From: a virus
Length of the DNA: 64,000 nucleotides
IMG/VR virus record: IMGVR_UViG_3300023184_004591
Coordinates: 31,293-95,292 of that record
Reading direction: 5' to 3' (one strand)
Numbering within the stretch: the first letter of the stretch is position 1; every line of letters starts with the position of its first letter. Below, piece after piece: positions 12,261 through 45,225 of this stretch. Below the pieces are notes generated by a model, which searched no databases, had not been told where the DNA came from, and was given only the letters and a program-made list of their open reading frames with translations. A program made the position numbers and the translations under genes.

Positions 12261-12273
12261 ATATTTTGTATTT

Positions 12274-13260: not shown

Positions 13261-13263
13261 ATA

Positions 13264-13911: not shown

Positions 13912-13914
13912 ATT

Positions 13915-15240: not shown

Positions 15241-15241
15241 A

Positions 15242-16489
15242 TTATAAATTACCTGTTAATCTATCACACCACCCTTTTGATATTGAGTGAGGCCATACAA
15301 CCCAATAGGTTGGTTTATCTGTAGCATTAAATTCTCTCCATACTTTACAATAACCATCAGGATCATTTTTCATCCTATTAATTTCATTAATATCGGCATC
15401 TAATCTATATAACGTTTCATCTTTTGAATTATGGAAGGCAACAACCCAAAAATCATAATCGGGTTCAGGTACACTACCATAATGAACATCAATACAATGT
15501 TTAAATATTGAAGAAAAGGAATCTTTCCATTCTTCTTCTGAACTATATGTATAAGGATTTGGTGGGTATTGTTTATCTAATGTGTATTGTTGTACCGCTC
15601 TTTTTGAGAATAATACACCAGAATATTTTTCATAGTCTTGTACTGTTCTTTCAGTACCTAATCCATAGATACCAAAGTCACTATCAGGAGTTTCACCATC
15701 AACACCTAATAATTGTCTATTTTTTTGGTGACATCTTTCGTTTCGTTTTCCCCAATCTTTATCATCATCCCATTGTTTTGTTCTACCCTTACGAGTATAT
15801 TCGTGCCAAATGACCGTTTTATGTGGGTGGAATAGATCATATCCGTGAGTATATGCTCTTACTGCAATTGAGATTTCTTCTCCATGAAAATAAAACTCAG
15901 GATCATGTTGTACCTCAGTTGAAAATTGACCTAAAGTAAAACAAAAGTGTGCCGAATAAAATCTTGAGGGAATTGGTTCTTTTAATTTATCCCAACCTGG
16001 TATTGTTTCAGGTAAAAAGAAAACACAACCTTCAGGTGTAAATCTATCGAAAGACATTCTCCACGGCTCCTTAACTCTACCTTGTGGGTCATTATCGGGA
16101 TCAAAAGAAGAAACATATCCTGTTAATAAAGGTTTTTTGTATCCTTTCTTTTGTAACTGTTTAATCATTTTAATTAAAGTGTCATCCCAATCCTTTTCAA
16201 ACCTCATATGTGAGTCAATCTGTAAAGTATATTCTTCACCTTCATATACTTGTTGAGTTAAATGTCTTGCCCAACAAACACCTGTCGATTCCGTATATGG
16301 AATATTTAAGATTCTGAATCTATCATCATTTTCATATTCTGACAGATCATCAAAACCATCTTCAGGGTGGAATTGTCTTGCAATACCAAGTCTAATGTTT
16401 TTTGGTTTTTTTGCCTTTTCCAACATATCTTTAATTGTTGGTATTAATTGTGGGTCCCTATAGGACGCAATTTGTACAAATATTCTCAT
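15242..16489 (-). CDS. GT60-family (Skp1-hydroxyproline/polypeptide) N-acetylglucosaminyltransferase
   Basis: IFVQIASYRDP, GVCWARH, LQIDSHMRF (DxH), YFHGEEISIAVRAYTHGYDLFHP, WHEY: the characteristic GT60 motif series. Confidence 0.85.
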   Translation of the reverse strand: MRIFVQIASYRDPQLIPTIKDMLEKAKKPKNIRLGIARQFHPEDGFDDLSEYENDDRFRILNIPYTESTGVCWARHLTQQVYEGEEYTLQIDSHMRFEKDWDDTLIKMIKQLQKKGYKKPLLTGYVSSFDPDNDPQGRVKEPWRMSFDRFTPEGCVFFLPETIPGWDKLKEPIPSRFYSAHFCFTLGQFSTEVQHDPEFYFHGEEISIAVRAYTHGYDLFHPHKTVIWHEYTRKGRTKQWDDDKDWGKRNERCHQKNRQLLGVDGETPDSDFGIYGLGTERTVQDYEKYSGVLFSKRAVQQYTLDKQYPPNPYTYSSEEEWKDSFSSIFKHCIDVHYGSVPEPDYDFWVVAFHNSKDETLYRLDADINEINRMKNDPDGYCKVWREFNATDKPTYWVVWPHSISKGWCDRLTGNL

Positions 16490-16548: not shown

Positions 16549-19500
16549 TCATTTACAAGGGAAAGATACATTACATGATGCACAATTGTTTGTTCCCGAC
16601 CAATCTATCCCAGCACCAACTGCAGTTCCTGTTGATGTTGATATTGTTGTCCAACATTGACTACCTTGAGTAACAATTTGACCCGCAATGGTTCCTACTG
16701 GTAAAATAATTATTCTGTCGGCAAGAACTCCACAACAGTGTGCAACTAACCATTTAACACCACCTGTTGTTGTTGGTGTAATTGTAGGTGTTGGAGTTGG
16801 CGTTGCAGTTTTCGTAGGTGTTGGTGTCGGTGTTGGACATGGGTTTGTAGTCAGACAAGTAGCACAACTACTTCCGTATGATACATTATTCCAAGTTAAT
16901 GTTGCAGGTCCTGCAATTGTACCAGAAATTTGATAACAGTTATTATTAATGTCAGTAACTACGTCACCGATCGCAAATGATGACGGTAAACTAATAATAC
17001 CATCAGGGTCCGCATTACAACAAGGTTTCACAAAGAAGAATGAGTAGGATGTGGTTGGTGTTAGAGTTAATGTTGGTGTTAATGTTGGTGTTGAAGTTCT
17101 CGTTGGTGTTGGTGTTAATGTTTTAGTTAGTGTTGGTGTTGGTGTTGGACATGCAGGGCAGAAAGTACATCCTAAACCATCGATATCATTTCCATATACA
17201 GAACCATTCCATGTTACTGTTGCAGGTCCTATAACAGTTGATGAAACCACATAACAGTTACCGTTTGTTGCTCCAACAACATATAAAATGTCAAGATTCA
17301 CATATATTGCAGGTAAGTAAAGAACCGCAGTGGATCCATCACAACATGATGTTCCTAATCCCCAAGTGTATTCTGTGGTTACCGTTGGTGTATTAGTCGG
17401 TGTTGGTGTTAACGTAGGTGTTGAAGTTCTTGTTGGTGTTAATGTTGGAGTTAACGTAGGGGTTAACGTAGGTGTAGAAGTTCTTGTTGGTGTTAATGTA
17501 GGTGTTAACGTTGGAGTTGAAGTTCTTGTTGGTGTTAATGTTGGGGTTAACGTAGGTGTAGAAGTTCTTGTTGGTGTTAATGTTGGTGTATTAGTCAATG
17601 TCTGAGTCAGCGTTGGTGTTAACGTTGGTGTTAATGTAGGGGTGTTAGTTAAAGTCTGAGTTAATGTAGGTGTTAATGTTGGGGTTGAAGTTCTTGTAGG
17701 GGTTAACGTAGGGGTATTAGTCAATGTCTGAGTTAATGTAGGTGTTAATGTTGGGGTTGAAGTTCTTGTAGGGGTTAACGTAGGGGTATTAGTCAACGTT
17801 GGAGTTAATGTTGGAGTTAACGTAGGTGTATTAGTCAAGGTCTGAGTTAAAGTTTGGGTCAATGTTGGGGTATTAGTCAACGTTGGAGTCAATGTAGGGG
17901 TTGAGGTTCTTGTTGGGGTTAATGTTGGCGTTAACGTAGGGGTGTTAGTTAACGTTTGAGTTAATGTAGGTGTTAATGTTGGTGTACTAGTTAATGTCTG
18001 AGTCAACGTTTGAGTTAACGTAGGTGTATTAGTTAAAGTTTGAGTTAACGTAGGGGTTAACGTAGGTGTGTTGGTTAAAGTTTGGGTCAACGTTGGTGTT
18101 AACGTAGGTGTTGAAGTTCTTGTTGGTGTTAATGTTGGAGTTAATGTTGGTGTATTAGTCAATGTCTGAGTTAATGTTGGTGTTAATGTAGGGGTATTAG
18201 TTAATGTCTGAGTTAACGTTGGTGTCAATGTAGGTGTTGATGTTAACGTTGGTGTCAATGTAGGTGTTGATGTTAATGTTTGAGTCAGGGTTTGAGTAGG
18301 TGTTGGCGTTGGTGTCAATCCTATTGTTGAGGTTAAAGTTTGTGTTAATGTAGGTGTAGGTGTTGAGGTTAAAGTTTGAGTTAATGTAGGTGTATTGGTT
18401 AGAGTTGGTGTTAACGATCTTGTTAATGTTGGGGTATTAGTTAATGTCTGACTTAAAGTCTGAGTCAATGTTGGAGTATTAGTTAAAGTTTGAGTCAATG
18501 TTGGAGTTAACGTTGGTGTGTTAGTTAAAGTTTGAGTCAATGTCTGAGTCAATGTAGGGGTATTGGTTAATGTCTGAGTTAACGTTGGTGTTAATGTAGG
18601 AGTATTAGTTAATGTTTGAGTCAACGTTTGAGTCAATGTAGGGGTTGAAGTTCTTGTTGGTGTTAACGTTGGTGTTAACGTAGGGGTGTTAGTTAACGTT
18701 TGAGTTAATGTTGGAGTTAACGTCGGGGTATTAGTTAATGTCTGAGTTAATGTTTGAGTCAATGTAGGGGTGTTAGTCAATGTTGGAGTTAACGATCCTG
18801 TTAACGTAGGGGTGTTAGTTAACGTTTGAGTTAGAGTTTGTGTTAATGTAGGGGTGTTAGTTAAAGTTTGAGTCAATGTAGGAGTATTAGTCAACGTAGG
18901 CGTTAACGATCTTGTTAATGTTGGAGTATTAGTTAAAGTTTGTGTTAATGTAGGTGTTAATGTTGGTGTGTTAGTTAACGTTTGAGTCAACGTTGGCGTG
19001 TTAGTTAATGTTTGGGTTAATGTAGGGGTTAATGTGGGGGTTGAAGTTAACGTTTGAGTTACCGTTTGAGTTAACGTTGGGGTATTAGTAGGTGTCTCCG
19101 TAGGTGTTGGTGTTGGAGTATTTGTAGTATTTGATGTTCTTGTTAACGTTGGTGTGTTAGTAAGAGTAGGCGTAGGGGTTGAAGTCAACGTTTGTGTTAA
19201 CGTAGGAGTTAAGGTTGGGGTTGAAGTTAACGTTTGTGTTAACGTAGGAGTTAGAGTTGGAGTTGAAGTTAACGTAGGTGTTAATGTTGGAGTTAATGTA
19301 GGGGTGTTAGTCAATGTCTGAGTCAACGTTGGGGTTGAAGTTCTTGTTGGAGTTAATGATCCTGTTAACGTAGGAGTGTTAGTTAAAGTTTGGGTTAATG
19401 TAGGTGTTAGAGTTGGGGTACTGGTTAAAGTTTGAGTTAATGTTGGGGTATTAGTTGAAGTTAACGTAGGGGTATTAGTTAATGTCTGAGTTAAAGTTTG

Positions 19501-20835
19501 AGTCAATGTTGGAGTTAATGTTGGGGTATTAGTCAATGTTTGGGTTAATGTAGGTGTTAGAGTTGGGGTTGAAGTTAACGTAGGTGTTAACGTAGGGGTT
19601 AGAGTAGGTGTTGAAGTTCTTGTTGGTGTTAACGTAGGGGTTAATGTAGGGGTGTTAGTTAAAGTTTGAGTCAACGTTGGTGTTAACGTAGGTGTTAACG
19701 TCGGAGTATTAGTTAATGTCTGAGTCAATGTCTGAGTCAACGTTGGGGTTAACGTAGGGGTATTAGTTAATGTTTGGGTTAACGTAGGGGTTACCGTTCT
19801 TGTTAAAGTAGGGGTATTAGTTAAGGTAGGAGTTACAGTTCTTGTTAACGTAGGGGTATTGGTAGGAGTTGAAGTTCTTGTTGGTGTTACAGTTTGAGTT
19901 AACGTAGGGGTGTTAGTTAATGTTTGGGTTAATGTCGGAGTTAACGTAGGAGTATTTGTTAACGTCGGAGTATTAGTCAATGTCTGAGTTAACGTTTGTG
20001 TTAACGTTGGGGTATTAGTAGGGGTATTGGTAGGCGTTGATGTTAAAGTTTGAGTTAATGTTTGAGTTAACGTAGGTGTATTAGTTGGGGTTGACGTAGG
20101 AGTTAACGTTGGTGTATTGGTAGGTGTTGATGTTAATGTTTGAGTTACCGTTTGAGTTAATGTAGGGGTGTTAGTTAAAGTTTGAGTTAATGTCGGAGTT
20201 AACGTAGGAGTATTTGTTAAAGTTTGTGTTAACGTTGGTGTATTGGTAGGTGTTGATGTTAAAGTTTGAGTTAATGTCTGAGTTAATGTTGGAGTTAAAG
20301 TAGGGGTATTAGTTAGAGTACTAATAGGTGTTGACGTTAATGTTGGTGTTAATGTTGGTATTGGTAAAATACAAGTATTCCCAATACATGGTGATCCATA
20401 ATTTAAAGTAACATTATCTAAATTAATTACATTACTACCACAATAATATACCGTAGAGTATCCAGGAACAAAAACATTCCCAATTACATTTCCAAAACAA
20501 TCAGTGTATGTGAATGATCCCCCACCATCATTATTACAAGAAACCGCAAGACAACAACAAGTACAAGGACCTGTTGCGGTTGGGGTTAATGTTGGCGTAT
20601 GGGTTGGTGTATTAGTTGGAACACATTGGTGATATTGGAATGTTTCACAATTTTGTGAATCAACTATTTTTACTAAAATTGGTGTTGTCTCATCTAATGG
20701 GGATGGAGAATAAAACGTTGTTGTTCCACCACCAAATGTCGTCGCATAATAACAATACGTATTTGTTACATCACACACATAAATATTATATGGAGGCGTT
20801 CCTGTTGATACGGATAATGTTATTTGATACGGCAT
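16549..20835 (-). CDS. Giant mucin-like Thr/Pro-rich virion fibre protein with Cys-rich C-terminal modules
   Basis: 1428 aa: small Cys-containing N-domains, ~1000 aa of [16 protein letters not shown] repeats, then three CC..C[YW]..CxxC..C modules. No signal peptide; TATTTAT upstream. Confidence 0.85.
17375..20360 (-). repeat. Low-complexity coding repeat (Thr-X)n
   Basis: ~3 kb of degenerate 6/12-nt-period repeats, extremely G+T-rich on the + strand, with local exact duplications (30-nt period near 18212-18271; ~72-nt period near 17654-17796). Confidence 0.95.
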
Positions 20836-20912: not shown

Positions 20913-22898
20913 TTATGAACAATTATGAATCGCAGTACATTCTGGACAATCAATATATTCTGTAATTGTACCTAAAAATAAGGTTGATGGTCCCGAAGTT
21001 GGTGTACTATTTTCCCAACAAGTCCCACTATCACTATCATAAAAGTATGTCGGTAATCCATTTGATGGAACTAAAACTGTTTGATCTGGTTGCACCCCAC
21101 AACAATCAATTAGTTGAACATAGTTACAAACATTTTGACTGATACAACCATTACAATTATCGTATTGGGATTCCCATACGCTGAAGTTTGTTGTTGGGGT
21201 ATCTGTTGTGATCGAAACACAACTATAACAGTTTCCAACGGAGTCAGTATACCTCCTACCAATTGTGTATGATCCAAATGCAATTTCTGTAATCCCATTT
21301 TCACAACAAGATTCAAATAAATAATAATCAGGACAATTTCCAATATCCATCTGACAACTCTGACAACTATCATATTGGGCTTTAGGTATTATAATTAAAG
21401 GCCAAGTTGGTGTTCCAACTAAAGACCATCCAACAACTTCCCAACAAACACCATTTACATCACCAAATATTGTTCCCGTTGTTGGAACTTGCTCCATGAT
21501 GGCTACCTCAACCTGTAATAGGTCACAACAATTTCTAAGAGTGACATAAGCAAAATCAGGACAAGTATTTGAGTCCACACAATCAATACAATCAGTCGAA
21601 GGCGTTGTTAAAGTTATTTCATAATTTGTTGGTAATTCATATGCTTCCGATATAATAGTCCAACAAATTCCGTCCGAATCAACCCAAACCTCATCTATGG
21701 AGAGATCCAATGTTGTATGTATTACTTCTTGTGAGAAAATACCACAACAAGACTGAACCACCCAAACAGACGGACAATTGTTATTACTAATACAATCTTC
21801 GCAATTAGTATATCCTGTTGTTCCAATCGTAATTGTAGGGGCAGTTACAGGTGCGGATGTGCTTGAGTCAATACTCCAACAGAATCCGTAATCATCAACA
21901 AAATAATCACCAACTGTTAAACCTAATGATCCTGAAACATATTCCAAACCCTTAACACAACAATTTACAATATTAACATTATCAGGACAACGATTACTTG
22001 AAATACAAGATTCACAACTCTCATAGTTACTTACTAATGATCTAACACTATTTGGTGAGGTTGTTCCAGTACTTTCTATCTCCCAACAATTACCATCTGA
22101 ATCACTCCAAAATGACCCTATTGTTAAATTTGTCCCATTAATAATTTCGGTAACGGTTGGTTCACAACAATTTCTTAACAGATAAAATTCACCGTCAGGT
22201 ATTGAACAATTTTTTTCATAATTTAATGTATATGTAAAATTGGCAGGACCCTTTATTACGGAATTATGTGTAACGCTCATGCCAACAACAAAGAACACAT
22301 CACATGAATCGTAATATTGGGTGAAAGTATGTGAGAGATCAAAACATAATGTATTTTTGGCAAACCCGTACCTTGTCGGTGTAATAACTGACGTAAGTGG
22401 TATTCTTCCGGTTACTGATAAATCATGACATTGGTATAAAAATAAACTAATTACAAATGATGGAGGTATTCCACTATTTCTTATATCAAAATAAATGTTA
22501 CCACATAAATGTATTGTGTCTCCCGACCTAATGTCAACAGGGCAAGGTACCCCAACATTTGATATTGACTCAGGTATTGGAGGTACAGTACCTCCTTTAT
22601 ATGGTAAAGGAAAATCCCACGGACAACCATTCCATCCACAACCTTTACTAGCACCAACATATAATGAAGAAAATTTTGCAGAAGACGACGAAGGTGTGAA
22701 ATACCCCGAATTTGACGCAATTAACGTATTTTCCGTTGAGCACCCACCAATAAGTGATGCGACTTGAGATAACGTAGCTTTATATGATGATCCTGCAGGG
22801 TTTTGTGATGTGTCCCCCGTAATCACTATGTGTAGTATATCATCAAGTGATATACTTGGGGCTAATGTTCTATCTGTTAGTCTTTGGTAATTCGGCAT
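20913..22898 (-). CDS. Fibre-like protein with six tandem ~70-aa six-Cys modules
   Basis: N-terminus MPNYQRLTDRT...DDILHIV...SYKATLSQV; six CC-x-C[WY]-x-CxxC-x-C repeats between ~22185 and 20913. Confidence 0.8.
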   Translation of the reverse strand: MPNYQRLTDRTLAPSISLDDILHIVITGDTSQNPAGSSYKATLSQVASLIGGCSTENTLIASNSGYFTPSSSSAKFSSLYVGASKGCGWNGCPWDFPLPYKGGTVPPIPESISNVGVPCPVDIRSGDTIHLCGNIYFDIRNSGIPPSFVISLFLYQCHDLSVTGRIPLTSVITPTRYGFAKNTLCFDLSHTFTQYYDSCDVFFVVGMSVTHNSVIKGPANFTYTLNYEKNCSIPDGEFYLLRNCCEPTVTEIINGTNLTIGSFWSDSDGNCWEIESTGTTSPNSVRSLVSNYESCESCISSNRCPDNVNIVNCCVKGLEYVSGSLGLTVGDYFVDDYGFCWSIDSSTSAPVTAPTITIGTTGYTNCEDCISNNNCPSVWVVQSCCGIFSQEVIHTTLDLSIDEVWVDSDGICWTIISEAYELPTNYEITLTTPSTDCIDCVDSNTCPDFAYVTLRNCCDLLQVEVAIMEQVPTTGTIFGDVNGVCWEVVGWSLVGTPTWPLIIIPKAQYDSCQSCQMDIGNCPDYYLFESCCENGITEIAFGSYTIGRRYTDSVGNCYSCVSITTDTPTTNFSVWESQYDNCNGCISQNVCNYVQLIDCCGVQPDQTVLVPSNGLPTYFYDSDSGTCWENSTPTSGPSTLFLGTITEYIDCPECTAIHNCS

Positions 22899-22929
22899 CC
22901 TCTTTTAGTTATAAATATTTAAGATGTCA

Positions 22930-23235
22930 TTATTGATCCTCGAAAAGATAAATATTTGCATCCATAAAAAGAAATCCTTCCCCAGATTGGAATAATTTAC
23001 TTTTTGATTCACCACAATTTAATATGAAAAATTCTTCACAACCATAGACATCAATTATTTTAATTCCTATTGCAGGAACGTTATTAAATTGGGAGGGTAT
23101 GTTTAATGTTATTGATGGTGGTATTGGGGTGTTTATGTACGCTAAAACCGCACATTGATTTCCGTACACATCACAGACATATATAACATAAGGTAAGGTT
23201 GCACCTGTAATACTATCAATTTGTAATACTAACAT
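22930..23235 (-). CDS. Small adaptor-like structural protein
   Basis: Paralogous to the mucin N-domain (PY.IYVCDV....C...IKI.D...CE.F); C-terminal KLFQSGEGFLFMDANIYLFE tail. Confidence 0.75.
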   Translation of the reverse strand: MLVLQIDSITGATLPYVIYVCDVYGNQCAVLAYINTPIPPSITLNIPSQFNNVPAIGIKIIDVYGCEEFFILNCGESKSKLFQSGEGFLFMDANIYLFEDQ

Positions 23236-23295
23236 ATACCATAAATACTTACGTTAACTCAAATTGAAAACCTAAATAGGATATTTAAAGTTTAC

Positions 23296-23643
23296 TTATA
23301 CTATTCCCAATAATTCTATATATTTGTTGTATAAAAAATCATTTGAATCAAGTAAGTTACTTGTAAATTCTGTTCTGTTTAAAATAATATTTTTATATTG
23401 GTCATCATATGAAAATAATGATAGACTCATTTCATCCCAATTATTACAATTTAAGGGTAATTCTGAGTTAGTTTGAGTTTTAAAAGTTTCGGATGTCATC
23501 ATAGATAAAACATCGATTAATAACGTTTTAACTATTAAGTCATCCATTTTTTCAATATCAACTCTCATGGTCGAACTTTTATTTATTGTGATCCCGTTTT
23601 GATAAAGGGTTATTACTAATATATTCCAATCTGTATAATTCAT
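23296..23643 (-). CDS. Hypothetical protein
   Basis: 115-aa ORF 1 nt downstream of the large fibre gene. Confidence 0.65.
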   Translation of the reverse strand: MNYTDWNILVITLYQNGITINKSSTMRVDIEKMDDLIVKTLLIDVLSMMTSETFKTQTNSELPLNCNNWDEMSLSLFSYDDQYKNIILNRTEFTSNLLDSNDFLYNKYIELLGIV

Positions 23644-23644
23644 A

Positions 23645-26600
23645 TTAATTATTTTTTAAAACCATTACTGTTAATGTACCTTGTTTTATTGACCCACCAA
23701 TACCACTAACAGAGGCGGAAGACCCCGAAACATAAACGGCATCCACTTCAATTGTATGTGAACCCGCAGCTAAAGTAAGTATTACTGAAGTATTCCAATT
23801 GGCAACCCAGTTCGTAACGTTAGCAAGTGCCGCTGCCGTTGGGTTGTCAGCATATATTCTTTGATATCCACCTGAGGCTAATACCGCACCATCAACTAAA
23901 ATTGCAACATCTAATGCTGAACCACCTGTTGAAGTTGTTGCGAGCGTATTAACACCACCATTTGTCTGTATGTAAACCATTGTTTGTCCCGAAACTGTGA
24001 TTGTTGTCGATAAACCTGGAATTAAAGTCAATGCGGTTGTTGCACTTGTAAGATTTAATTGGGAGGTACCCGTAACCATTATACCTGATTGACCTAAAGT
24101 TAAAGAACTTCCATTACCTGTGTAAGTACCTGAAAAAGAACCAAAGAACCCAACTGATGAGGTTACAGTTCCTGACATAGTTGTTGTACCGTCATCTTTT
24201 ACTTTGAAGACCTCAGTACCACTATTATTTTTTAATGTTAATTGGTCTATAGTAGTTGCACTTGCACTTACACTTTGTTGTACTCTTAAATTATCAAATT
24301 GTAAATTTTGTGATGCTGCGGTAGAGTAATTGAAGAATACTCCAAATACACTCATAAGTGTTGAGGTGTATGTACTATCAACCGCAGAACCTATTAACGT
24401 ACTTGTTGTTGTTGGATCACCCCATGCAGATGCTCCGTCATCTCTAAAATAATACGACCAAGTATTTGTTGATGGTGTGTATACAATTCTAGCACTGACA
24501 TAATTTGTGTTACCTGAGAAAAGTCCACCAGTAATAATATCTGTTTGAGTTCCCGCAAGACCATTATTATATTTAACAAGTTTCCAATTTCGTGTACCTG
24601 TTGTACCATAGACTAATGCGTAACCACTACCCGCACTTTGTAAGTTAGTATTTGATCCTACCAATACTACCGCTCCTGCGTATGAGGAAGCTCCAAATCC
24701 TGCAAATATTGACGCTCTATTAGTCCTTAAATTGAAAGTCCATTCAATTGTAGATAATGAGTTATTACTTGATAATGTTGGGTTAAATGGTGAACCAAAT
24801 CCTGAAAGAGGAACTGTTGTATAAGATTGTCCAGCAGTACCTCCATTAGCAATATTCAAATAGTTAGTTACTATTGTGGCATTTCCTGTACCTGTATTTG
24901 TATTTGTATATGTTAGGGATGGTGTTCCTCCTGGAGATAAGGTTACTCTACCATAATCATCAATAAATGGTGTTGAGACAGATGGGGTTGGTGGTACATT
25001 TGGAGAAACTAAAGTTAATGTTGAGGCACTTACAGTTGTTGCGGTAACTGACTTCATTGAAGTATTTCCTGTCACAGTTAAATCTCCATTAACTGTCATT
25101 CCTGTTACACTATTAATTGTTGCGGTTAAATCAGGTTGACCATTATTTTGTTTAACCGTAAAAATATTATTATTGTATGTGAATCCTGTCACATATGTGT
25201 TAGGATCTATTGGTAAATTGTTATAAGTTGTTGCTGAAATTGTATTTGCCGTTAAACCACTTTGGAAAATAGTTCCCCCTGTCATAGTTCCCCCACTTAA
25301 TGGAAGATATTTTCCGGTAACATTATCAGGTAAATTGTTATAAGTTGTTGCTGAAATTGTATTTGCGGTTAAACTTTGCACTGAGGTATTTCCTGTCACA
25401 GTTAAATCTCCATTAACTGTCATTCCTGTTACACTATTAATTGTTGTGGTTAAGTCAGGTTGACCATTATTTTGTTTAACCGTAAAGACATTATCACCAT
25501 ACGTAAACCCTGTCACATATGTGTTAGGATCTATTGGTAAATTGTTATAAGTTGTTGCTGAAATTACATCACTTGTAATGGATGATGCACTGTATATATC
25601 ATTACCACCCATGTTAATGTCTCCCACCATTGGTCTTGACCCATCAACTAAAAGGTACTGTGTATGGTCATCCGCACTTAAACCTAATAAGTTACCGTGA
25701 GTTGCAGATGCGTTAACACCTCCAGCCTTAAATCCAACAATAGGTCTTATATCTTCTATTTGGTAAATGTTTGACCCTCCTTGTCGGACGTATATGCTTG
25801 CAATTTCAGTTACTGAATCACTAAAATATGTTGGGGGTAATGGTAATAACGCATTTTCTGCCTGTATTAAAGTTGGATATTGATTTTGACCTAACACTAA
25901 AAAGTACTGTTCATTTACTGCATCACCAACAACATACAATGTATGTTTTGTGAACGCACTAATTGATAATGGAGAAATAGTTCCACTATTGTCATCATAA
26001 CCTACAACTACTTGAGTTGTTGCAGATGTTGACCATCCTGTACCACCATCTCTATAATACATTGTAAATGTAATTCCATTACCACCATCAGGGAAAAATT
26101 CGTTTGTGGAATAATAATAATCCCCACCAGTTACATCTATATTATATGGTGTTATATTTTCCGTAACAATTGATCCTTTTGAATAAATTGGTCCAATACC
26201 GTTTCTAAATAAATTACTATATTGGTTAGATGTATGGTTCGCATTTAAAGGACTGGCATCAATTAAAACAATATCGGTGGAGTTTGTTACAACTCTACCT
26301 AAAACAATATTATAAACTGAATTAGGTCTTAAACCTGAATTAGATAAAATTCCATTGTTATTAATAAATAAATACTGATTACTATTTTGTGGTAACTCTT
26401 TTAGAGTATCACTCCAATCAAAACGTTTAATAACACCATTGTTAATTATACTTTCTAAATAACCATAACCTTCAGATACACTAATTGTGGTTCCACTAAC
26501 TATTGTAATAATACCACCCTCAAGAACACCCATTGTACCACCTTCAAAAAGAAGTGTGGATAAATCAGTGTGTGTACCATCTTTAAATGTTACAGAAAGT

Positions 26601-27649
26601 TTTCTTGTTATATCCAATTCACCATCCGTATGGTCTAAGAAAGACCAATACACATCTTCTGAAACATTAAATATTTTTTGGTGACTTAAACTACCTTGTA
26701 TTGTTCCTTGAGTTCCAGAATGATCAACTGATAAATCATAAGTTAACGAATCTATAATACTAACACCATCAATATCAAATGTTGAGGGTCCACCAATATT
26801 CATTACTCTAAAACCAATATCCCAATTTGAAATATTTACACTAGATACAATTAAATTTGCATTATCTTCTATTTTAAACGCAATTGATCCAGAAGTATTA
26901 TCTCCAATACAATTACCACTACTATAACTAATTTGAGACCCAATACCTTGACAAAAATTCGCAATCGTTGGGACACCTGTTGGCTCATTAAAATGGTTTT
27001 CTAATGACGCAAATGCGGTATAAGTAGGGCTGTTGGCAATAACGTAAACACCATAGGTGTACGATCCATTTAAGTCAATGTACTCACCAAAAAATTCTGT
27101 GTTTGCAATTGATGATGTAACACTAATTTGAACGTCATTGTCATACATTGATACTTTATGTGCCAAAGCAAACCCATCTAAGTCGTCACACGCAATACCA
27201 ACACCTGAGGTGGCACCACTAATAGTTAAAAATGATATTTGACCCGTATCGCCTAATCTAAAAATAATGTTTGATGGATTATCAGGTGTTATTACAACAG
27301 AATTAATGTCCACACCAACAATACTAACATACGGTTTGTTTGATAAGTTAATTGGTGGTTCAACATAAACACCTGACCCCACTTGAATTGAATATCTATT
27401 TGTAAACGATGGTCCTGATATTGATTGGACTGCATCATATAAAGATGTAAAATCTACATCCCCACCTTTACCAACTTTAATTACATTTTCTACAAATGTA
27501 TTATCTAATACATAATTTTTTAAATCATCTATTTTAGTTTCACTTGTAGTTCCTGTTGGATTTATGTAACTAACAAAAGGTACTATATCGGTGGCAGTAT
27601 AACCTGATTTACCGACATATGGAAGTTGTGATATTTTTACGTCTGACAT
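23645..27649 (-). CDS. Large tail-fibre/spike-like protein
   Basis: N-terminal MSDVKISQLP; KVGKGGDVDFTSLYDAV beta-helix start; HGNLLGLSADDHTQYL motif; internal ISATTYNNLP repeats; lectin-like and C-terminal jelly-roll-like domains. Confidence 0.75.
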   Translation of the reverse strand: MSDVKISQLPYVGKSGYTATDIVPFVSYINPTGTTSETKIDDLKNYVLDNTFVENVIKVGKGGDVDFTSLYDAVQSISGPSFTNRYSIQVGSGVYVEPPINLSNKPYVSIVGVDINSVVITPDNPSNIIFRLGDTGQISFLTISGATSGVGIACDDLDGFALAHKVSMYDNDVQISVTSSIANTEFFGEYIDLNGSYTYGVYVIANSPTYTAFASLENHFNEPTGVPTIANFCQGIGSQISYSSGNCIGDNTSGSIAFKIEDNANLIVSSVNISNWDIGFRVMNIGGPSTFDIDGVSIIDSLTYDLSVDHSGTQGTIQGSLSHQKIFNVSEDVYWSFLDHTDGELDITRKLSVTFKDGTHTDLSTLLFEGGTMGVLEGGIITIVSGTTISVSEGYGYLESIINNGVIKRFDWSDTLKELPQNSNQYLFINNNGILSNSGLRPNSVYNIVLGRVVTNSTDIVLIDASPLNANHTSNQYSNLFRNGIGPIYSKGSIVTENITPYNIDVTGGDYYYSTNEFFPDGGNGITFTMYYRDGGTGWSTSATTQVVVGYDDNSGTISPLSISAFTKHTLYVVGDAVNEQYFLVLGQNQYPTLIQAENALLPLPPTYFSDSVTEIASIYVRQGGSNIYQIEDIRPIVGFKAGGVNASATHGNLLGLSADDHTQYLLVDGSRPMVGDINMGGNDIYSASSITSDVISATTYNNLPIDPNTYVTGFTYGDNVFTVKQNNGQPDLTTTINSVTGMTVNGDLTVTGNTSVQSLTANTISATTYNNLPDNVTGKYLPLSGGTMTGGTIFQSGLTANTISATTYNNLPIDPNTYVTGFTYNNNIFTVKQNNGQPDLTATINSVTGMTVNGDLTVTGNTSMKSVTATTVSASTLTLVSPNVPPTPSVSTPFIDDYGRVTLSPGGTPSLTYTNTNTGTGNATIVTNYLNIANGGTAGQSYTTVPLSGFGSPFNPTLSSNNSLSTIEWTFNLRTNRASIFAGFGASSYAGAVVLVGSNTNLQSAGSGYALVYGTTGTRNWKLVKYNNGLAGTQTDIITGGLFSGNTNYVSARIVYTPSTNTWSYYFRDDGASAWGDPTTTSTLIGSAVDSTYTSTLMSVFGVFFNYSTAASQNLQFDNLRVQQSVSASATTIDQLTLKNNSGTEVFKVKDDGTTTMSGTVTSSVGFFGSFSGTYTGNGSSLTLGQSGIMVTGTSQLNLTSATTALTLIPGLSTTITVSGQTMVYIQTNGGVNTLATTSTGGSALDVAILVDGAVLASGGYQRIYADNPTAAALANVTNWVANWNTSVILTLAAGSHTIEVDAVYVSGSSASVSGIGGSIKQGTLTVMVLKNN
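25062..25565. repeat. Intragenic direct repeat (~180 bp x2, offset 324 bp)
   Basis: 25062-25241 is nearly identical to 25386-25565, with a partial third copy near 25329-25373. Confidence 0.85.
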
Positions 27650-27674
27650 TATCTTTTTTTATTTATAAATACTT

Positions 27675-27944
27675 TTATTCTACGATTATGTAGGCACCAT
27701 TTTCAGAAATTAATCGGTTTCCAAACTCATCGGTTATAACAGGTATACAAGGGACATTTAATATACACGTTTTATCATAAAACGGAATGTAAATTGTATA
27801 CGATCCACGATAGTCCTCACTTATATAATTATATGGTAATGTTACGGTTCCAAGATCAATTACATTACCGTAACAATCGGTATGTATGATTTCGGATTGT
27901 TGTCCGATATAATTGTTTGTTAATATTTGTAAAACTGAACTCAT
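27675..27944 (-). CDS. Small adaptor-like structural protein
   Basis: Paralogous to the N-domain of 28605..30488 (I...NY.G...VI.LG.VTLP...G.YTI); C-terminal ITDEFGNRLISENGAYIIVE tail. Confidence 0.75.
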   Translation of the reverse strand: MSSVLQILTNNYIGQQSEIIHTDCYGNVIDLGTVTLPYNYISEDYRGSYTIYIPFYDKTCILNVPCIPVITDEFGNRLISENGAYIIVE

Positions 27945-28582
27945 TAATAAGTTTTATTTAATGTAAATATCTCTGAATAAATTGAGTTTCCTGCATTGTT
28001 AGTGTTCCACTGAGCGGTGATGACAAGTGTATTATCTATTGTAGTATCAAAAGTTGTATCGTTTACTACACTAAAATTTACTCCTTCAAAGTTAAGACCT
28101 GAATTCTTAGTATAAGCGAATAATCCTCCCGATACTATTGATCCTACTGTTGCCACCCCTATTCGTCTTACAGTAAAATTAACATCTAGTTTCCAATGTT
28201 TATTTGTGGCGGTCTCCATCGCCATTACTCCTGTATCTGCTAACAATATGCCTGAAACAGTTTTAATTCTAATATGTAAAGTAGCGGCACCAACACAAGA
28301 TATATGTCCTATTAATACTCCATGAAAACTATCACCAACACTGAACCCATTTTCAGGAATTGTAATAGATCCTACACCATTATTTATTAATGTCGACTCA
28401 ACGGTTGTGGCACTTACCGCAACGCTGGTTCCTGTTTGACTAAATAACCCATAAACTATTGGCAGGGGTGATAATGTAGATTGTTTTATTTTATATGTGG
28501 TTCCCGAATACTCAACAACAAACTCAGAGTTTGCAGTTACTGCGGTTAATTCGGGTAATGAGGATATTGGTAAATCTGGCAT
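27944..28582 (-). CDS. Short fibre/decoration protein
   Basis: N-terminal MPDLPISSLPE...TTYKIK followed by a single beta-sandwich; TATTTAT upstream. Confidence 0.7.
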   Translation of the reverse strand: MPDLPISSLPELTAVTANSEFVVEYSGTTYKIKQSTLSPLPIVYGLFSQTGTSVAVSATTVESTLINNGVGSITIPENGFSVGDSFHGVLIGHISCVGAATLHIRIKTVSGILLADTGVMAMETATNKHWKLDVNFTVRRIGVATVGSIVSGGLFAYTKNSGLNFEGVNFSVVNDTTFDTTIDNTLVITAQWNTNNAGNSIYSEIFTLNKTY

Positions 28583-28604
28583 TTCTTTTTATTTTATAAA
28601 TAGT

Positions 28605-30488
28605 TTATGTTATCATAATCTTTGATCCATCTGCCTGTAGAACAAAGAATCCATCGGATTGTAATAAATAGTTTATTATATTTGTCGGTGTTGGTGTTAA
28701 TGTCGGTGTTAAAGTAGGTGTGTTAGTTAAGGTCTGAGTCAATGTCTGAGTTAACGTTGGTGTTAAGGTAGGCGTTAATGTTGGAGTTGAAGTTCTTGTT
28801 GGTGTTAACGTCTGAGTTAATGTTGGTGTCGGTGTTGAAGTTGGTGGGTTAAGAGGATCTATCAACTCAACGTATAGTAAATCATTATCACCAATACTTT
28901 GTGTTAAATTATAAATGTAAGTACTTGGTGGTGTTCCTGTGAAACCACTTATTAAGATTCCGTTTTCGTAAACATTAACTGTGTGGTTAGTACCACCTGT
29001 AACACTTATGATTAAGTAATCACCAGGAACGTTAGTATATAAGAATCCATTTCCACTTGTGTTTTGTAAAATTGGGTAATAGAAGTTAAATACCGCACTA
29101 AAATTACCACCTATTGAGGTTATCACTGAACCATCGGTATCGTAATTACTAACTAAGAAGTTTCTATATGGTGTTGGTGTAGGTGTTGGGGTTAAGGTTG
29201 AGGTTGGTGTAGGTGTTGGTGGATAACATGCATCTGTACAAATTACATACCCTGGTTCACCTGTTAAATCATATCCAGTTGGTACTTCAGGTATTAATGA
29301 TAAAACTTCAAAAGTATAACCACGATTTTCAGGGTTATTATAAAAATACCCAATAGTTAAAGGGGTTAATGATTTAACGTTAAATGTCCCAACGTTTGAA
29401 CAACCACCACCATAACAACCATACCCTGTTACTTCATAATAATATATTATTTGGGTTGAGGTTGGGGTAACTGTCGGTGTTGGGGTTGAGGTTAATGTTG
29501 GTGTTAATGTCGGTGTTAATGTTGGGGTTAATGTTGGTGTTAATGTTGGTGTTGACGTTAAAGTAGGTGTCGGAGTTAAAGTTGGTGTTGGTGTTGGTGT
29601 GTTTGTTATATAAACTATTTCATATGTGAAATCACAGTTCAATGTTGTTGGTGTTGGTGTTGACGTTAACGTTTGTGTTAACGTAGGTGTGTTAGTTGAC
29701 GTTAACGTTTGTGTTAATGTTTGTGTTAACGTAGGTGTGTTAGTTGGTGTTTGTGTTAATCCTGGTGTTTTTGTATGTGTTGGTGTTTGTGTACGTGTAG
29801 GTGTCACGGTTTGAGTTAACGTTTGTGTTAATGTTGGCGTTAATGTTGGTGTTTGTGTACGTGTAGGTGTCACGGTTTGAGTTAACGTTTGTGTTAATGT
29901 TGGCGTTAATGTTGGTGTTTGCGTAGGTGTTGCCGTTAACGTAGGCGTTGGTGTTAATGTTGCCGTTAATGTTAATGTTGGAGTTTGGGTAATAATACAA
30001 TAACCACTTGTTGTAGTTTGTGTTGGTCTTGGTGTTCTAGTTGGTTTTGGTGTTTTACTTGGTGAAGGACAACCACATGGATCCGTACACGTCGGATGAG
30101 GTGTGGATGTTACCGTTTGAGTTACCGTTTGAGTTACAGTAATTGTTGGTGTTGGTATACAAACATATCTTGTTTCAGTTGGTGTAACTGTTGGTGTTGG
30201 TGTAGCAGTCGGTGTTTTTGTTAATGTTGGTGTTGGTGTTGGTGTCGGAGTAGGTCTGACAACATTTAATATGTTTGGGCAATCATTATCAACACATTGA
30301 TCATTTAATACCAATATGGTGTAAGTACCATAAATTTCTCTTTGTGGATCAAGTAAAGATGGGTTAAATGTACATGGAAGTGTTACATTCCCCAAGTTAA
30401 TTACAACATTATCGTTGTCAGGTTTAAATAATATATTTGCAACCTCACCATCGTAATTAAAACTTTTTATTATTATGCTTTGACTCAT
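28605..30488 (-). CDS. Second mucin-like Thr/Pro-rich structural protein
   Basis: Several TPT/TQT tracts separated by small Cys domains; exact 66-nt tandem duplication at 29778-29909; C-terminal YLLQSDGFFVLQADGSKIMIT tail. Confidence 0.8.
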   Translation of the reverse strand: MSQSIIIKSFNYDGEVANILFKPDNDNVVINLGNVTLPCTFNPSLLDPQREIYGTYTILVLNDQCVDNDCPNILNVVRPTPTPTPTPTLTKTPTATPTPTVTPTETRYVCIPTPTITVTQTVTQTVTSTPHPTCTDPCGCPSPSKTPKPTRTPRPTQTTTSGYCIITQTPTLTLTATLTPTPTLTATPTQTPTLTPTLTQTLTQTVTPTRTQTPTLTPTLTQTLTQTVTPTRTQTPTHTKTPGLTQTPTNTPTLTQTLTQTLTSTNTPTLTQTLTSTPTPTTLNCDFTYEIVYITNTPTPTPTLTPTPTLTSTPTLTPTLTPTLTPTLTPTLTSTPTPTVTPTSTQIIYYYEVTGYGCYGGGCSNVGTFNVKSLTPLTIGYFYNNPENRGYTFEVLSLIPEVPTGYDLTGEPGYVICTDACYPPTPTPTSTLTPTPTPTPYRNFLVSNYDTDGSVITSIGGNFSAVFNFYYPILQNTSGNGFLYTNVPGDYLIISVTGGTNHTVNVYENGILISGFTGTPPSTYIYNLTQSIGDNDLLYVELIDPLNPPTSTPTPTLTQTLTPTRTSTPTLTPTLTPTLTQTLTQTLTNTPTLTPTLTPTPTNIINYLLQSDGFFVLQADGSKIMIT

Positions 30489-30490: not shown

Positions 30491-33364
30491 TTAAAATGTT
30501 TTTTCAACGGCCAAACAAATTTCACCATTTTCATTTATTAATCTTCTCATATCCGTAAAACTGATATAAGCGTGACCTTGTTGGCCCCACGATTTACCCC
30601 AACTATTTTTAATTCTAAACTGTTGTTTTTTTGTGTCAACACCATTAATAACATATGCGTGTCCACCAGCGAGTCTACCTGAAATACTAATTAAACCATT
30701 TCTATCAGGGTAGAACATACCATTGTACCAATTAGTACCAACAACAACAGGACCTACGTTTAATATTGTTGAAACCAAAACGTTCAAATCAAATGTCCAT
30801 AAATAAGATCCTATTTTCCCTGTATTTTTAAGATACTTGGCGGCTCCTCTAACAGATGTCCCATCGTAATTTTCACCTACCCATTCATCAATTTTTTGGG
30901 CCTCTGTGTAAATTAAACTTGGGGGAATAATTGGTGCGATCCCACCATGTTTTACAGGACCATCTTCAATCCAATGAGCCCAAGCGTATCCAACACATTG
31001 TGGTGTATTTCCTTGATTACCCCACCATTCATTATCATCCCAATTTCTAATAGTTAATGGTGTGATAGTTCTTGGTAGTTTATCTTCAATTAAATATTTT
31101 TTATCTCTTTCATCAGGAATATAATTTCTACCTAATTGGAATTCATCCCCAACAGGTTCATCATTAACTACTTGATATGTAAAATCATTAACCTCACAAG
31201 ATAATACATCACAATCAGGACAATCATAATCAAACATATCAAAAGTACCTTTCAATACTTTGAAATTATGTTTAACCTCAGCTGATGACAATGGTGTAAC
31301 ATACATTCTAAATTGAGATATGCCACCTTCAAATGTTCCACCAAAATTTTGTTCCAATAGAATATTTGTTTTCATTCCTGCAAATGTTGTTCCACTAAGA
31401 ATATTCTCAGGAAATAATTCAGGATCTTGAATGTAATTGTTATAAGGATAAGTAGTTGATGAAAAAGTTAAGTTCTCATGTAGTCCTTGAGTTCCTCCAC
31501 CCCACGAAATGTTGAATGGTACCCCAAGTTGTCTTTCTTTATCTGTATTAAGTGCTCTTGGAATAATTTCTTCAAAGTCTTCAATAGTGTAGAACGGTTT
31601 ACCATTAACGTAGATTCTTAATCTACCCATTCTATATTTTTTGTCATCCAACCATTTTTGATTTAGATTAACAAGTTCTATCATTTCAGGTTCCTTTTTA
31701 CCATTAGTAATCGGAACGGTAATTAATTTTACTGTGTCGTTTGCAAGTGAATCAAGATACTCACGTTTAGTAATATCATCTAACCCACCTCTATATTTTA
31801 AATCACAAGTATCTAAATAGGTATACCTACTCCACACAACATTAATGTTAACCCATTTCTCCACATCAAAGAATGGAGCACATTTATCAATACAATAATC
31901 GTATATACCATTTGGTGAACAATATTCAGTTATAGTATAACCTGTTACATAAGTTTGACCAGTCACACAAGTTCCTGATGTTTGACAATCACCGGTAATT
32001 TTCAATACTTTAACTCCAATCTTTGGATTCTTAGGGTCTCCACATAATTTTAATGAGAACGCATTTGATAAAGAATCAAACAATGGATCTTTTTCACAAG
32101 TTTCTTCTATTGAAGTATATCCCGTTGGTGAACAAGTTACACAATCATAACAAGTCTCACACGCCGTACAACTTGGTGTACACACAGGTGGTAATAAACA
32201 ATGTTCCCCACTTTTGGTTGGGGTAAATGATGGTGTTGGTGTTGGAGTACAATAACAACCTTGTTCTACTGTTGGGGTAGGTGTTGGTGTTGGAGTAACA
32301 AAAACGGTAGGACAATTATGTGTTTGACATTCCCACCCACATATATCACATTCTTCTTTACCGCATCCACACCCACAAGTTAATTTTTTTTCTTTATCAC
32401 CACCACATAAATCACAACCATAATTAACATGATAATCATGTTTATTATCAACAGATCTTGGTGGGTAAACGTAAATACATCTACTATTATGTGTATATGT
32501 GTTACAACACGCACAAGTTTCAACAGTTGTTAAACCAGATGTAACTCTTGTATACCCTGTAAAACAATTTGGTGAACCATCAGCATGATGATAAAATTTA
32601 TTCTCAGCTCTTGTCCCAAAATAAAAAAATATATTTTTATTGTTAGGATATATTTCATTTAATGTTGTCTCATCAGGATCCGGAAAATATTGGTCAAACA
32701 ATCTAGGTTTGATAACCATTTCAACAGACCAACCTTTATTCATTCTCTCAGGAAAAATGTCGTAGTCATAACCAAACAATTTATAAAACCCTTGATAGAA
32801 ACCACCATATAATTCGTGGTACTTTCCAAACGTCGGATCTGTTTTACTAACAACCTCATATAAAGTTGTTTTTGGTATTCCCGAAAATCTATGATTAGTC
32901 TCAGTATAACCCGTAACTTGAAACATTTTTAATCTTCTGTCAAAATGTAATCTATCAAATTTTATACTATCATCATATAAACCATTTGTAAAATATATTG
33001 TTTCTCCCGACATTTTGGTAACTAAACCATTGTCTATCCCCGTTAAACCAATATCACAAGCCGTTGACGATGAAAAACAAGTTAAATCTAAATTTTTTGG
33101 GTTATAATAGTTTTGAGAAACAAAAACATTATTAAAGTTATAATTCTTATATGTTAACGTTAGGTCTTGGGCACTTAATGGATCACTTATGTTAAAATTA
33201 ATTGGTAGTCGATTACCATATGTTTGAGCAATTAAAAATGGGGAAAAAATAACCTCTTGATTATAATCCCTTTCATCAGAAGTCAAAGACATATCCATAC
33301 TATCGGACTCAAGATTTATCTTGTACTTCTTATAAACATATTGATTAATATTTTGTTCCGCCAT
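30491..33364 (-). CDS. Cys-rich LamG-like structural protein with a C-terminal papain-like (C1A) protease
   Basis: LamG-like segments (WSVEMVIKP, LRIYVNG, GGISQFRMY) around a Cys/TP insert; C-terminal QGNTPQCVGYAW, GGHAY, IKNSWGKSWG. Confidence 0.8.
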   Translation of the reverse strand: MAEQNINQYVYKKYKINLESDSMDMSLTSDERDYNQEVIFSPFLIAQTYGNRLPINFNISDPLSAQDLTLTYKNYNFNNVFVSQNYYNPKNLDLTCFSSSTACDIGLTGIDNGLVTKMSGETIYFTNGLYDDSIKFDRLHFDRRLKMFQVTGYTETNHRFSGIPKTTLYEVVSKTDPTFGKYHELYGGFYQGFYKLFGYDYDIFPERMNKGWSVEMVIKPRLFDQYFPDPDETTLNEIYPNNKNIFFYFGTRAENKFYHHADGSPNCFTGYTRVTSGLTTVETCACCNTYTHNSRCIYVYPPRSVDNKHDYHVNYGCDLCGGDKEKKLTCGCGCGKEECDICGWECQTHNCPTVFVTPTPTPTPTVEQGCYCTPTPTPSFTPTKSGEHCLLPPVCTPSCTACETCYDCVTCSPTGYTSIEETCEKDPLFDSLSNAFSLKLCGDPKNPKIGVKVLKITGDCQTSGTCVTGQTYVTGYTITEYCSPNGIYDYCIDKCAPFFDVEKWVNINVVWSRYTYLDTCDLKYRGGLDDITKREYLDSLANDTVKLITVPITNGKKEPEMIELVNLNQKWLDDKKYRMGRLRIYVNGKPFYTIEDFEEIIPRALNTDKERQLGVPFNISWGGGTQGLHENLTFSSTTYPYNNYIQDPELFPENILSGTTFAGMKTNILLEQNFGGTFEGGISQFRMYVTPLSSAEVKHNFKVLKGTFDMFDYDCPDCDVLSCEVNDFTYQVVNDEPVGDEFQLGRNYIPDERDKKYLIEDKLPRTITPLTIRNWDDNEWWGNQGNTPQCVGYAWAHWIEDGPVKHGGIAPIIPPSLIYTEAQKIDEWVGENYDGTSVRGAAKYLKNTGKIGSYLWTFDLNVLVSTILNVGPVVVGTNWYNGMFYPDRNGLISISGRLAGGHAYVINGVDTKKQQFRIKNSWGKSWGQQGHAYISFTDMRRLINENGEICLAVEKTF

Positions 33365-37648: not shown

Positions 37649-37649
37649 T

Positions 37650-38102
37650 ATGTCTAATAAAAAAGGAATAGTAGGTTTTACCGCAGGTAACTTTGATTTA
37701 TTACATCCTGGCTACATTTATACATTTGAAACTGCAAAAGAACACTGTGATTATTTTATGGTGTTTCTTCAAAGAGATCCTTCTGAGACACGATTTACTA
37801 AATACAAACCTGTTGTCCCATTATATGAAAGACACAAAACATTAATGTCAATAAAATACATTGATGAGGTTGTAACATATCAAACTGAAGATGATTTACT
37901 AAAATTGATTGAATTTTTTAAACCTGATGTGAGAATTTTAGGAGACGATTATATTGGTAAACGATTCACTGGAGATCATATACCAATGGAAATTATTTAC
38001 ACTACAAGATCACATAATTGGTCAACAACAAAAATTAAAGACTTAATTACAATACAAACTTTAAAACAAAATCCTGAAATTATTAAACAAATTGAATTAT
38101 GA
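37650..38102 (+). CDS. Cytidylyltransferase (TagD-like)
   Basis: AGNFDLLHPGY, ER...L..IKYIDEV, LGDDY, RSHNWSTT. Confidence 0.85.
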   Translation: MSNKKGIVGFTAGNFDLLHPGYIYTFETAKEHCDYFMVFLQRDPSETRFTKYKPVVPLYERHKTLMSIKYIDEVVTYQTEDDLLKLIEFFKPDVRILGDDYIGKRFTGDHIPMEIIYTTRSHNWSTTKIKDLITIQTLKQNPEIIKQIEL

Positions 38103-39396: not shown

Positions 39397-39397
39397 T

Positions 39398-40662: not shown

Positions 40663-40664
40663 TA

Positions 40665-42170: not shown

Positions 42171-42172
42171 AC

Positions 42173-45208: not shown

Positions 45209-45225
45209 TAAATAAAATATAACAC

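Follow-up and report, generated by a model that had tools for sequence, protein, structure and literature searches.

A periodic C-terminal peptide of phage adaptor proteins may plug into the trimeric start of the next-encoded fibre

Introduction

Receptor-binding fibres set the host range of phages, and the placement of their separately encoded pieces is known for few model systems. Here we describe a fibre gene block within a stretch of 64,000 nucleotides (nt), referred to as the window, that makes up the right-hand 64 kb of the 95,292-bp single virus record IMGVR_UViG_3300023184_004591, which derives from an uncultured phage. The block carries three adaptor genes, each of which ends in a short periodic peptide (the plug) and directly precedes a fibre gene with a conserved start module (the socket). 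An original prediction made from the letters alone proposed that the tail of each adaptor docks a trimer of the next fibre; adjacency, co-variation, natural swaps and a predicted complex all support such docking, which is described below as a predicted plug-into-trimer joint.

Results

Three adaptor–fibre pairs in a single gene block

The fibre block is a single minus-strand run that extends from 33364 to 16549. In order of transcription, it encodes a 957-residue protein, adaptor 1, fibre 1, adaptor 2, fibre 2, a 115-residue open reading frame (ORF), adaptor 3, fibre 3 and a 1428-residue mucin-like protein; these genes and their relevant elements are listed with the basis of each assignment in brackets.

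30491–33364, minus strand: 957-residue protein with a papain-like (C1) peptidase C-terminus (ORF and family search)
28605–30488, minus strand: adaptor 1, 627 residues (ORF and translation, N-domain alignment A6, plug profile)
28608–28673, minus strand: plug 1, the last 22 residues of adaptor 1 (profile and complex model)
27944–28582, minus strand: fibre 1, 212 residues (ORF, relatives, models)
27675–27944, minus strand: adaptor 2, 89 residues (ORF, N-domain alignment, plug profile)
27678–27743, minus strand: plug 2 (type 2), the end of adaptor 2 (profile)
23645–27649, minus strand: fibre 2, 1334 residues (ORF and socket profile)
27515–27649, minus strand: type-2 socket, the start of fibre 2 (alignment and profile)
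23296–23643, minus strand: 115-residue ORF between fibre 2 and adaptor 3 (ORF)
22930–23235, minus strand: adaptor 3, 101 residues (ORF, AlphaFold2 model, plug profile)
22933–22998, minus strand: plug 3 (type 3), the end of adaptor 3 (profile)
20913–22898, minus strand: fibre 3, 661 residues (ORF and socket profile)
22758–22898, minus strand: type-3 socket, the start of fibre 3 (profile)
16549–20835, minus strand: mucin-like protein, 1428 residues (ORF and N-domain alignment)

As originally described, each adaptor gene directly precedes a gene with a related N-terminal motif, the homology of the third motif being weak (see below). The fibres start at 28582, 27649 and 22898, respectively 22, 25 and 31 nt after the stop of their adaptor, and one base is shared by the fibre-1 stop and the adaptor-2 start codon. 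A T-A-T-T-T-A-T box is found in the three spacers (28583–28607, 27650–27677 and 22899–22932), as well as in the related loci L147, L141 and L101 (L numbers denote individual loci).

Adaptor 1 consists of a class-A N-domain (approximately residues 1–75), long linkers rich in Thr and Pro, interrupted by two small globular inserts, and a type-1 plug; adaptor 2 has a class-A N-domain directly followed by a type-2 plug; and adaptor 3 combines a class-B N-domain (a β-sandwich, residues 1–74) with a short linker and a type-3 plug. The mucin-like protein, which has a class-B N-domain, Thr-X repeats over a length of about 1000 residues and fused end domains rich in Cys, is built of anchor and stalk like the adaptors, with a head that is fused and not docked. 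The paralogy of the N-domains is borne out by 33% identity over 60 residues (expectation value (E) 1e-4) between adaptors 2 and 1 and by 36% identity over 67 residues (E 4e-7) between adaptor 3 and the mucin-like protein; comparison of the two classes with each other revealed no detectable similarity. No Pfam family matches adaptors 1–3, whose sole PHROG match is the unnamed phrog_15511, on the Thr/Pro-rich linker of adaptor 1.

A C-terminal plug with an 8-residue period

The plug comprises about 22 residues, arranged as three short hydrophobic strands split by two acidic/Gly turns that lie 8 residues apart. When 625 frames of at least 40 residues, covering the entire 95,292-bp genome, were scanned with profiles derived exclusively from the tails of other contigs, the three plugs alone were found (E 1.4e-10, 5.1e-7 and 9.2e-11 for plugs 1, 2 and 3), every plug match lying at the extreme C-terminus, and the next-best matches had E values of 0.88 and 1.9. 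The three related tails of hydrophobic triplets, about 20 residues long, that the original prediction had noticed are hence recovered at the same positions by profiles that leave the window out. The match with E 0.88 corresponds to a weak plug-like end of a 116-residue ORF (window 4800–5150, plus strand) that is not followed by a socket gene, and is probably due to chance.

The tail of adaptor 3 is kept in 14 homologues, with invariant K80, F88, Y96 and F98 and three nearly invariant residues, and the linker that precedes it varies in length. In an AlphaFold2 model of this adaptor (predicted local distance difference test score (pLDDT) 78.9), the β-sandwich of residues 1–74 is followed by short strands 79–82, 87–89 and 95–97, which coincide with the tail; Foldseek searches with the model returned generic Ig/FN3/CBM-like β-sandwich matches alone. 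Synonymous codon changes in the plug equal or outnumber amino-acid changes (7 against 2, for instance, when the window is compared with L150), which argues for selection on the peptides at the protein level.

A portable socket at the start of the fibres

The first 40–45 residues or so of the fibres form a conserved module that consists of an N-terminal arm, with an I-S-x-L-P or L-T-D-R stretch, and a β-hairpin ending in G-T-T-x-K or G-S-S-Y-K. In fibre 1, a type-1 socket (approximately residues 1–40) is followed by a lectin-like β-sandwich head, which is common to 66 loci from residue ~20–45 onward and whose fold matches, to legume-lectin and TNF-like lectin folds, are weak (none at E ≤ 0.001). 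Fibre 2 continues from its type-2 socket into a long fibre with repeated segments, and fibre 3 from its type-3 socket into six Cys-rich repeats. Fibres 1 and 2 share the I-S-x-L-P module (alignment A5), aligning with relatives and also with L154 and L116, and sockets of types 1 and 2 align well with each other; the type-3 socket has the same layout, and its homology to types 1, 2 and 4 is weakly supported (hhalign E 0.009, probability 5%).

Socket profiles identify exactly three fibres in the genome; since they include the window's own rows, the informative result is that there is no fourth copy. Against 1.84 billion proteins, a 43-position socket profile retrieved at least 293 cluster representatives at E ≤ 0.001, nearly all matched from residue 1 and belonging to proteins of 34 to 1928 residues; by sequence, the socket is thus a portable N-terminal module. 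Family searches with Pfam and PHROGs, run on the genes of the block and on the cultured-phage carriers described below, found no family that covers plug or socket.

A predicted plug–socket complex

The interaction proposed in the original prediction was modelled with three copies of full-length fibre 1 (alignment A3) and a 49-residue C-terminal piece of adaptor 1 (alignment A4) that ends with the plug. The resulting complex has an ipSAE (interaction prediction score from aligned errors) of 0.61 (runs 0.61, 0.60 and 0.68), compared to 0.01 for the best of three controls; in a benchmark, 58 of 80 solved complexes and 2 of 110 mismatched pairs attained the mark set for this score, counts that apply only roughly to a model with its own alignment and a multi-copy set-up. 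Contacts agree by at least 93% between runs, and the pLDDT of the partner is at least 83. Searches of PDB sequences with the fibres and with both socket profiles gave no match; because no solved structure resembles fibre or socket by sequence, the outcome is unlikely to reflect recall of a known complex.

On the fibre side, the interface involves residues 1–7, 9, 22, 24 and 27–29, identical in all three copies, which belong to the N-terminal arm, including its conserved I, S and L, and to the hairpin. On the adaptor side, it lies entirely within residues 27–49 of the C-terminal piece, where, judging by the contacts with the lowest error, plug strands 29–31, 36–39 and 46–48 touch fibre copies 3, 1 and 2, respectively. 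As each strand sits on a different chain, the model proposes a pseudo-three-fold monomeric peptide inside a trimeric socket, and a single peptide with three strands fits the three hydrophobic triplets of the original prediction. Moreover, residues 1–44 of fibre 1 are unstructured in a monomer model (pLDDT ~40), and the whole fibre reaches a pLDDT of 90 in the trimer-plus-plug model.

Co-variation and natural swaps in uncultured relatives

About 240 loci were gathered around homologues of fibre 1, adaptor 3, the fibre-2 start and the class-A N-domain; at each, the C-terminal end of the upstream gene and the start of the next gene were classified, and distinct adjacent pairs were counted, including four missed by the class patterns and assigned by hand (window, L070, L161 and L190). 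Neither the 89-residue adaptor alone, which found no relatives, nor the broad socket alignment A5, which returned the same clade, extended this collection when used as query. Tail type matches the start type of the next gene in 53 of the 54 classifiable distinct pairs, which do not represent independent events because the phages are related and the two parts lie close on the DNA:

type 1 end before type 1 start: 4 distinct pairs
type 1 end before type 2 start: 1 distinct pair
type 2 end before type 2 start: 6 distinct pairs
type 3 end before type 3 start: 22 distinct pairs
type 4 end before type 4 start: 4 distinct pairs
C5 end (a larger end domain or connector) before S5 start: 8 distinct pairs
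C6 end (a larger end domain or connector) before S6 start: 9 distinct pairs

Class-A and, rarely, class-B N-domains therefore also carry C5 or C6 ends, each with its own start, so that there are more kinds of connector than the peptide plug. The C5–S5 combination is seen in L180, L185, L203, L216, L240, L252 and L134, and C6–S6 in L190, L194, L210, L212, L213, L231, L238 and L243.

Plug and socket have been exchanged together on several backgrounds. In L101 and L141, the class-B N-domain of adaptor 3 is joined to a type-1 plug and followed by a type-1 socket, and L103 and L116 resemble each other in the adaptor N-domain (46% identity, E 2e-26) and in the fibre head (50%, E 2e-29), yet their plug and socket differ jointly, being of type 3 in the former and type 4 in the latter. 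In L001, L003, L004 and L043, the head of fibre 1, which follows a type-1 socket in the window, is joined to a type-3 socket, and the gene upstream encodes a type-3 adaptor. Type-1 plugs are carried by class-A and class-B adaptors and by a β-propeller protein, and type-4 plugs by both classes. These natural swaps place the mosaic boundaries within the adaptor gene and within the fibre gene, on either side of a cassette of about 230 nt that includes the junction between the two.

A single plug type occurs on adaptors of 190 to 648 residues and a single socket type on fibres of 177 to 1296 residues, which, together with the swaps, supports the suggestion that heads are mounted on varied stalks in a combinatorial way. 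L093 has two plugs and two type-3 sockets. In L154 and L155, from a more distant IMG/VR phage, an unrelated 89-residue protein has a plug at its end, and a socket fibre starts 4 nt further on. In L071 (2692–2925), adaptor 3 is only 79 residues long and lacks the tail, and the next gene is that for the mucin-like protein, fibre 3 being missing; either the plug was apparently lost along with its fibre, or the arrangement is an assembly artefact.

The predicted joint in cultured phages

Cultured phages were sampled by socket similarity, and tblastn with sockets of 45–70 residues, although insensitive, provided leads to 15 loci; with the L154 socket as query, a word-indexed protein search yielded just 6 matches. 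These loci were scanned with a plain periodic motif, [STQCAM][ED]x[GDN] occurring twice at a distance of exactly 8 residues. The 881 frames searched (81,932 residues) yielded ten matches. Each falls in a real gene encoded on the same strand as the socket gene and no further than 700 nt from it, a zone that makes up about 1/8 of the search space; half of them finish 3–30 nt ahead of the socket gene or begin 41 nt beyond it. The plug-like motifs are located as follows.

Cronobacter phage S13: 515-residue Ig-domain protein encoded between wac and gene 13; 4 nt separate plug end and fibre
Citrobacter phage Ci1 (L175): arrangement as in S13, seen by eye
Erythrobacter phage R6L: C-terminus of a gpJ-like tail-tip protein (PF13550), ending 3 nt before the fibre
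Proteus phage 10 and Erwinia phage pEa_SNUABM_48: short DUF7941 proteins before collagen-like socket fibres
DSL-LC05: 52-residue protein two genes upstream
Cellulophaga phage phi13:1: N-terminus of the next structural protein, gp016
Aeromonas phages AS2 and ZPAH14: end of the downstream neighbour
Roseobacter phage CRP-4: N-terminus of, and inside, the upstream neighbour

Adjacent and co-varying tail and start motifs are thus seen in many other genomes, and adjacency extends to cultured phages of unrelated families; together with the predicted interaction, this is a positive outcome for both checks that the original prediction had named. In the T4-like Straboviridae S13 (L169, KC954775.1 68753–73884) and Ci1, the plug protein and the socket fibre are encoded in the interval from wac (fibritin) to neck gene 13, a position which suggests that the fibre is mounted on the neck or collar. 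In phi13:1 (L166, KC821625.1 3992–6948), gp015 starts with a type-3-like socket and gp016 with a plug-like motif that its paralogue gp017 lacks; according to the record annotation, both gp015 and gp016 were detected in virions by mass spectrometry, and the joint seems to be present with its plug at the N-terminus.

Genomic context of the block

The record is AT-rich and codes for a family-B DNA polymerase, PhoH, a SNF2 helicase and many glycosyltransferases and methyltransferases. A megablast search with the fibre block found no match among cultured phages; the closest relatives of the DNA polymerase, from Salinibacter and Nostoc phages, are just ~23% identical, and the relatives of the phage itself are uncultured IMG/VR contigs. 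The host may belong to the Bacteroidota, to judge from SprB-like "GGTxPY" repeats encoded by neighbouring genes and from sockets matched in phages of Flavobacterium and Cellulophaga.

A protein of 730–957 residues directly precedes a class-A adaptor in the window, L151, L152 and L153, with a papain-like C1 C-terminus in the window and L153. Because it adjoins class-A adaptors both here and in relatives, the 957-residue protein is a candidate carrier of the adaptors and, going by gene order, may be their attachment site. The 115-residue ORF (23296–23643) has no family match, and its position would fit that of a fibre assembly helper. Clusters of glycosyltransferase and methyltransferase genes (9861–16489 and 36434–47095) adjoin the genes with very long Thr-X/Thr-Pro linkers (16549–20835 and 28605–30488).

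Discussion

The motifs, their adjacency, their co-variation and swaps, their recurrence across phage families, the selection acting on them at the protein level and a complex model that passes its controls lead us to assign a probability of roughly 0.7 to the docking of the adaptor tail into the trimeric start of the next fibre. In such a predicted joint, the three adaptors would be anchored to the virion, probably through their ~75-residue β-sandwich N-domain, and would present the plug at the end of a linker that ranges from zero to about 500 Thr/Pro-rich residues. In the plug, two or three hydrophobic residues and an acidic/Gly turn recur with an 8-residue period before a last hydrophobic strand. 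The next-encoded fibre would trimerize so that the first ~40 residues of its three chains make the socket, and a single plug monomer, itself pseudo-three-fold symmetric, would enter along their three-fold axis, where its three strands would pair with the arm and hairpin of one chain each. Plug and fibre would accordingly be bound to each other in the virion with a putative 1:3 stoichiometry. Plug and socket would evolve and recombine as one cassette of ~230 nt and, because the cassette moves as a single unit, heads, stalk lengths and anchors would be exchangeable independently.

Could the plug instead be a transient aid to assembly, a chaperone-like nucleator of trimerization or register that is not retained in the mature virion? 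Such a role agrees with the disorder of the first 44 fibre residues in the monomer model and their ordering in the trimer-plus-plug model, and carriers as tiny as the 52-residue protein of DSL-LC05 look more like helpers than anchors. Most carriers, however, are virion-type proteins (the gpJ-like tip of R6L, the DUF7941 proteins and the Ig-domain proteins), long mucin-like stalks make sense only as tethers, and gp015 and gp016 of phi13:1 are, by the record annotation, both found in virions. Genes for fibre chaperones of the Tfa, gp38 or gp57-like kinds usually lie downstream of the fibre; unlike them, the adaptor genes lie upstream, and their products have no chaperone match in Pfam or PHROGs. 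A transient aid is, overall, unlikely. It also seems rather improbable that plug and socket, some 25 nt apart, are linked genetically and nothing else, each binding a different partner such as the baseplate, the capsid or a host glycan: loci with one part and without the other do exist, and the counted pairs are phylogenetically related, but the breakpoints lie within both genes, just outside the cassette, and not at the gene boundary, the motif pair is adjacent again in unrelated phage families with unrelated carriers and other gene orders, and the complex model passes its controls. Finally, the conserved T-A-T-T-T-A-T box of the spacers might mark the junction as a nucleic-acid signal, a promoter or a site of translational coupling of which the peptide motifs are by-products; given that the codons of plug and socket differ mostly synonymously, leaving the residues unchanged, and that the peptide motif recurs in GC-rich phages with different DNA, this explanation is extremely improbable.

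Other observations weigh against docking of the adaptor tail into the fibre trimer. Some co-inheritance is to be expected from a plug–socket distance of ~25 nt, and the pairs include one of mixed type, a type-1 plug before a type-2 socket in L150. Plug adaptors occur without a nearby socket in the fragmentary records L120, L123 and L126, sockets without an upstream plug in L148, L188, L204, L229 and L096, and plug-like tails precede a mucin-like gene in L207 and L232. The plug profile of the window clade scores cultured plugs weakly (best E 0.011–0.016), which is why the plain periodic motif was used in its place; some cultured phages carry this motif in the downstream neighbour or at an N-terminus, and no clear plug was found in the loci of Serratia phage 2050HW, Erwinia phage Hena2, Escherichia phage AV124 and Flavobacterium Lillamyvirus, the last of which has only the hairpin part of the socket, in an internal position. 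Moreover, the complex model represents one cognate pair, with a 5-row plug alignment and a stoichiometry chosen beforehand.

The nearest known principle is the pair of branching domain and docking peptide of Klebsiella phages. In receptor-binding proteins (RBPs) of the KP32 type, from Klebsiella podophages, a branching domain is combined with a conserved docking peptide, and deletion of the 29-residue peptide removes RBP2 from the virion (PMC6872550; PMC13352976). As is predicted for the window, a short conserved terminal peptide of one protein docks on another in a modular arrangement that allows head exchange. In the KP32 type, however, it is the incoming trimeric RBP that bears the peptide of ~29 residues, at its N-terminus, and the binding partner is a folded T4 gp10-like domain of the primary RBP, whereas in the predicted joint the carrier would contribute a monomeric C-terminal peptide with three strands and the incoming fibre a folded trimeric N-module. 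No sequence or family link between the two systems was found, and Pfam and PHROGs detect no gp10-like branching domain in the adaptors. A KP32-type pair was rejected for the window on the grounds that the carrier has no gp10-like domain and that the peptide is at its C-terminus.

Proteins from neighbouring genes are also joined through N-terminal modules in the branched tailspike complexes of the Ackermannviridae (CBA120 TSP1-4) and in adsorption complexes of the G7C/RaK2 type (PMC11414711, PMC10253068). There, too, several RBPs are hung on one another, but with folded N-terminal domains on both sides and with neither an 8-residue-periodic peptide nor mucin-like stalks. PAAR proteins are monomeric caps with internal pseudo-three-fold symmetry that sit on the axis of the trimeric gp5/VgrG spike. 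Their geometry, a monomer on the axis of a trimer, is shared by analogy only: PAAR is a folded domain of ~100 residues on a β-helix tip, unlike and not homologous to a 22-residue peptide predicted to sit on arms and hairpins.

In the Chimalliviridae phage Goslar, gp22 and gp23 are virion-associated DUF7941 anchor proteins that form filaments near the peripheral baseplate as head-to-tail oligomers and were proposed to bear domains for host recognition on these flexible filaments (10.64898/2026.04.21.720040). The short DUF7941 plug carriers directly before collagen-like fibres in Proteus phage 10 and pEa_SNUABM_48 recall these filaments, for which the preprint describes no such plug or socket (10.64898/2026.04.21.720040). 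DUF7941 (PF25613) has no match in the adaptors of the window and is confined to the plug carriers of these two jumbo phages. Searches of the literature with the socket motif strings found no relevant paper; the principle of modular RBP docking is already known, and the present connector appears to be undescribed, as do its deployment on mucin-like stalks and the monomer-in-trimer geometry predicted for it.

The joint is small, with a plug of 22 residues and a socket of ~40, and recognizable from sequence, and it is without a curated family; it is apparently common to myo-, sipho- and jumbo phages of Bacteroidota and Proteobacteria, cultured ones included. We also put forward, tentatively and at somewhat less than even odds, that it is a widespread and portable monomer-into-trimer connector of tailed phages, found on tail tips, baseplate filaments, neck proteins and mucin-like stalks, whose types are orthogonal enough for several fibres to be placed at defined sites. 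If this were true, gene order and termini would suffice to read the architecture of the fibres, and receptor-binding heads could be swapped with the ~230-nt cassette as a ready handle.

In summary, the arrangement of the block suggests that this phage tethers small lectin-like trimers non-covalently on long, probably glycosylated, mucin-like stalks. The joint would explain why one shared short module is so frequent at the start of fibre genes, would permit the annotation of many "hypothetical" small genes beside them and would offer a testable rule for reading fibre architecture from genomes.

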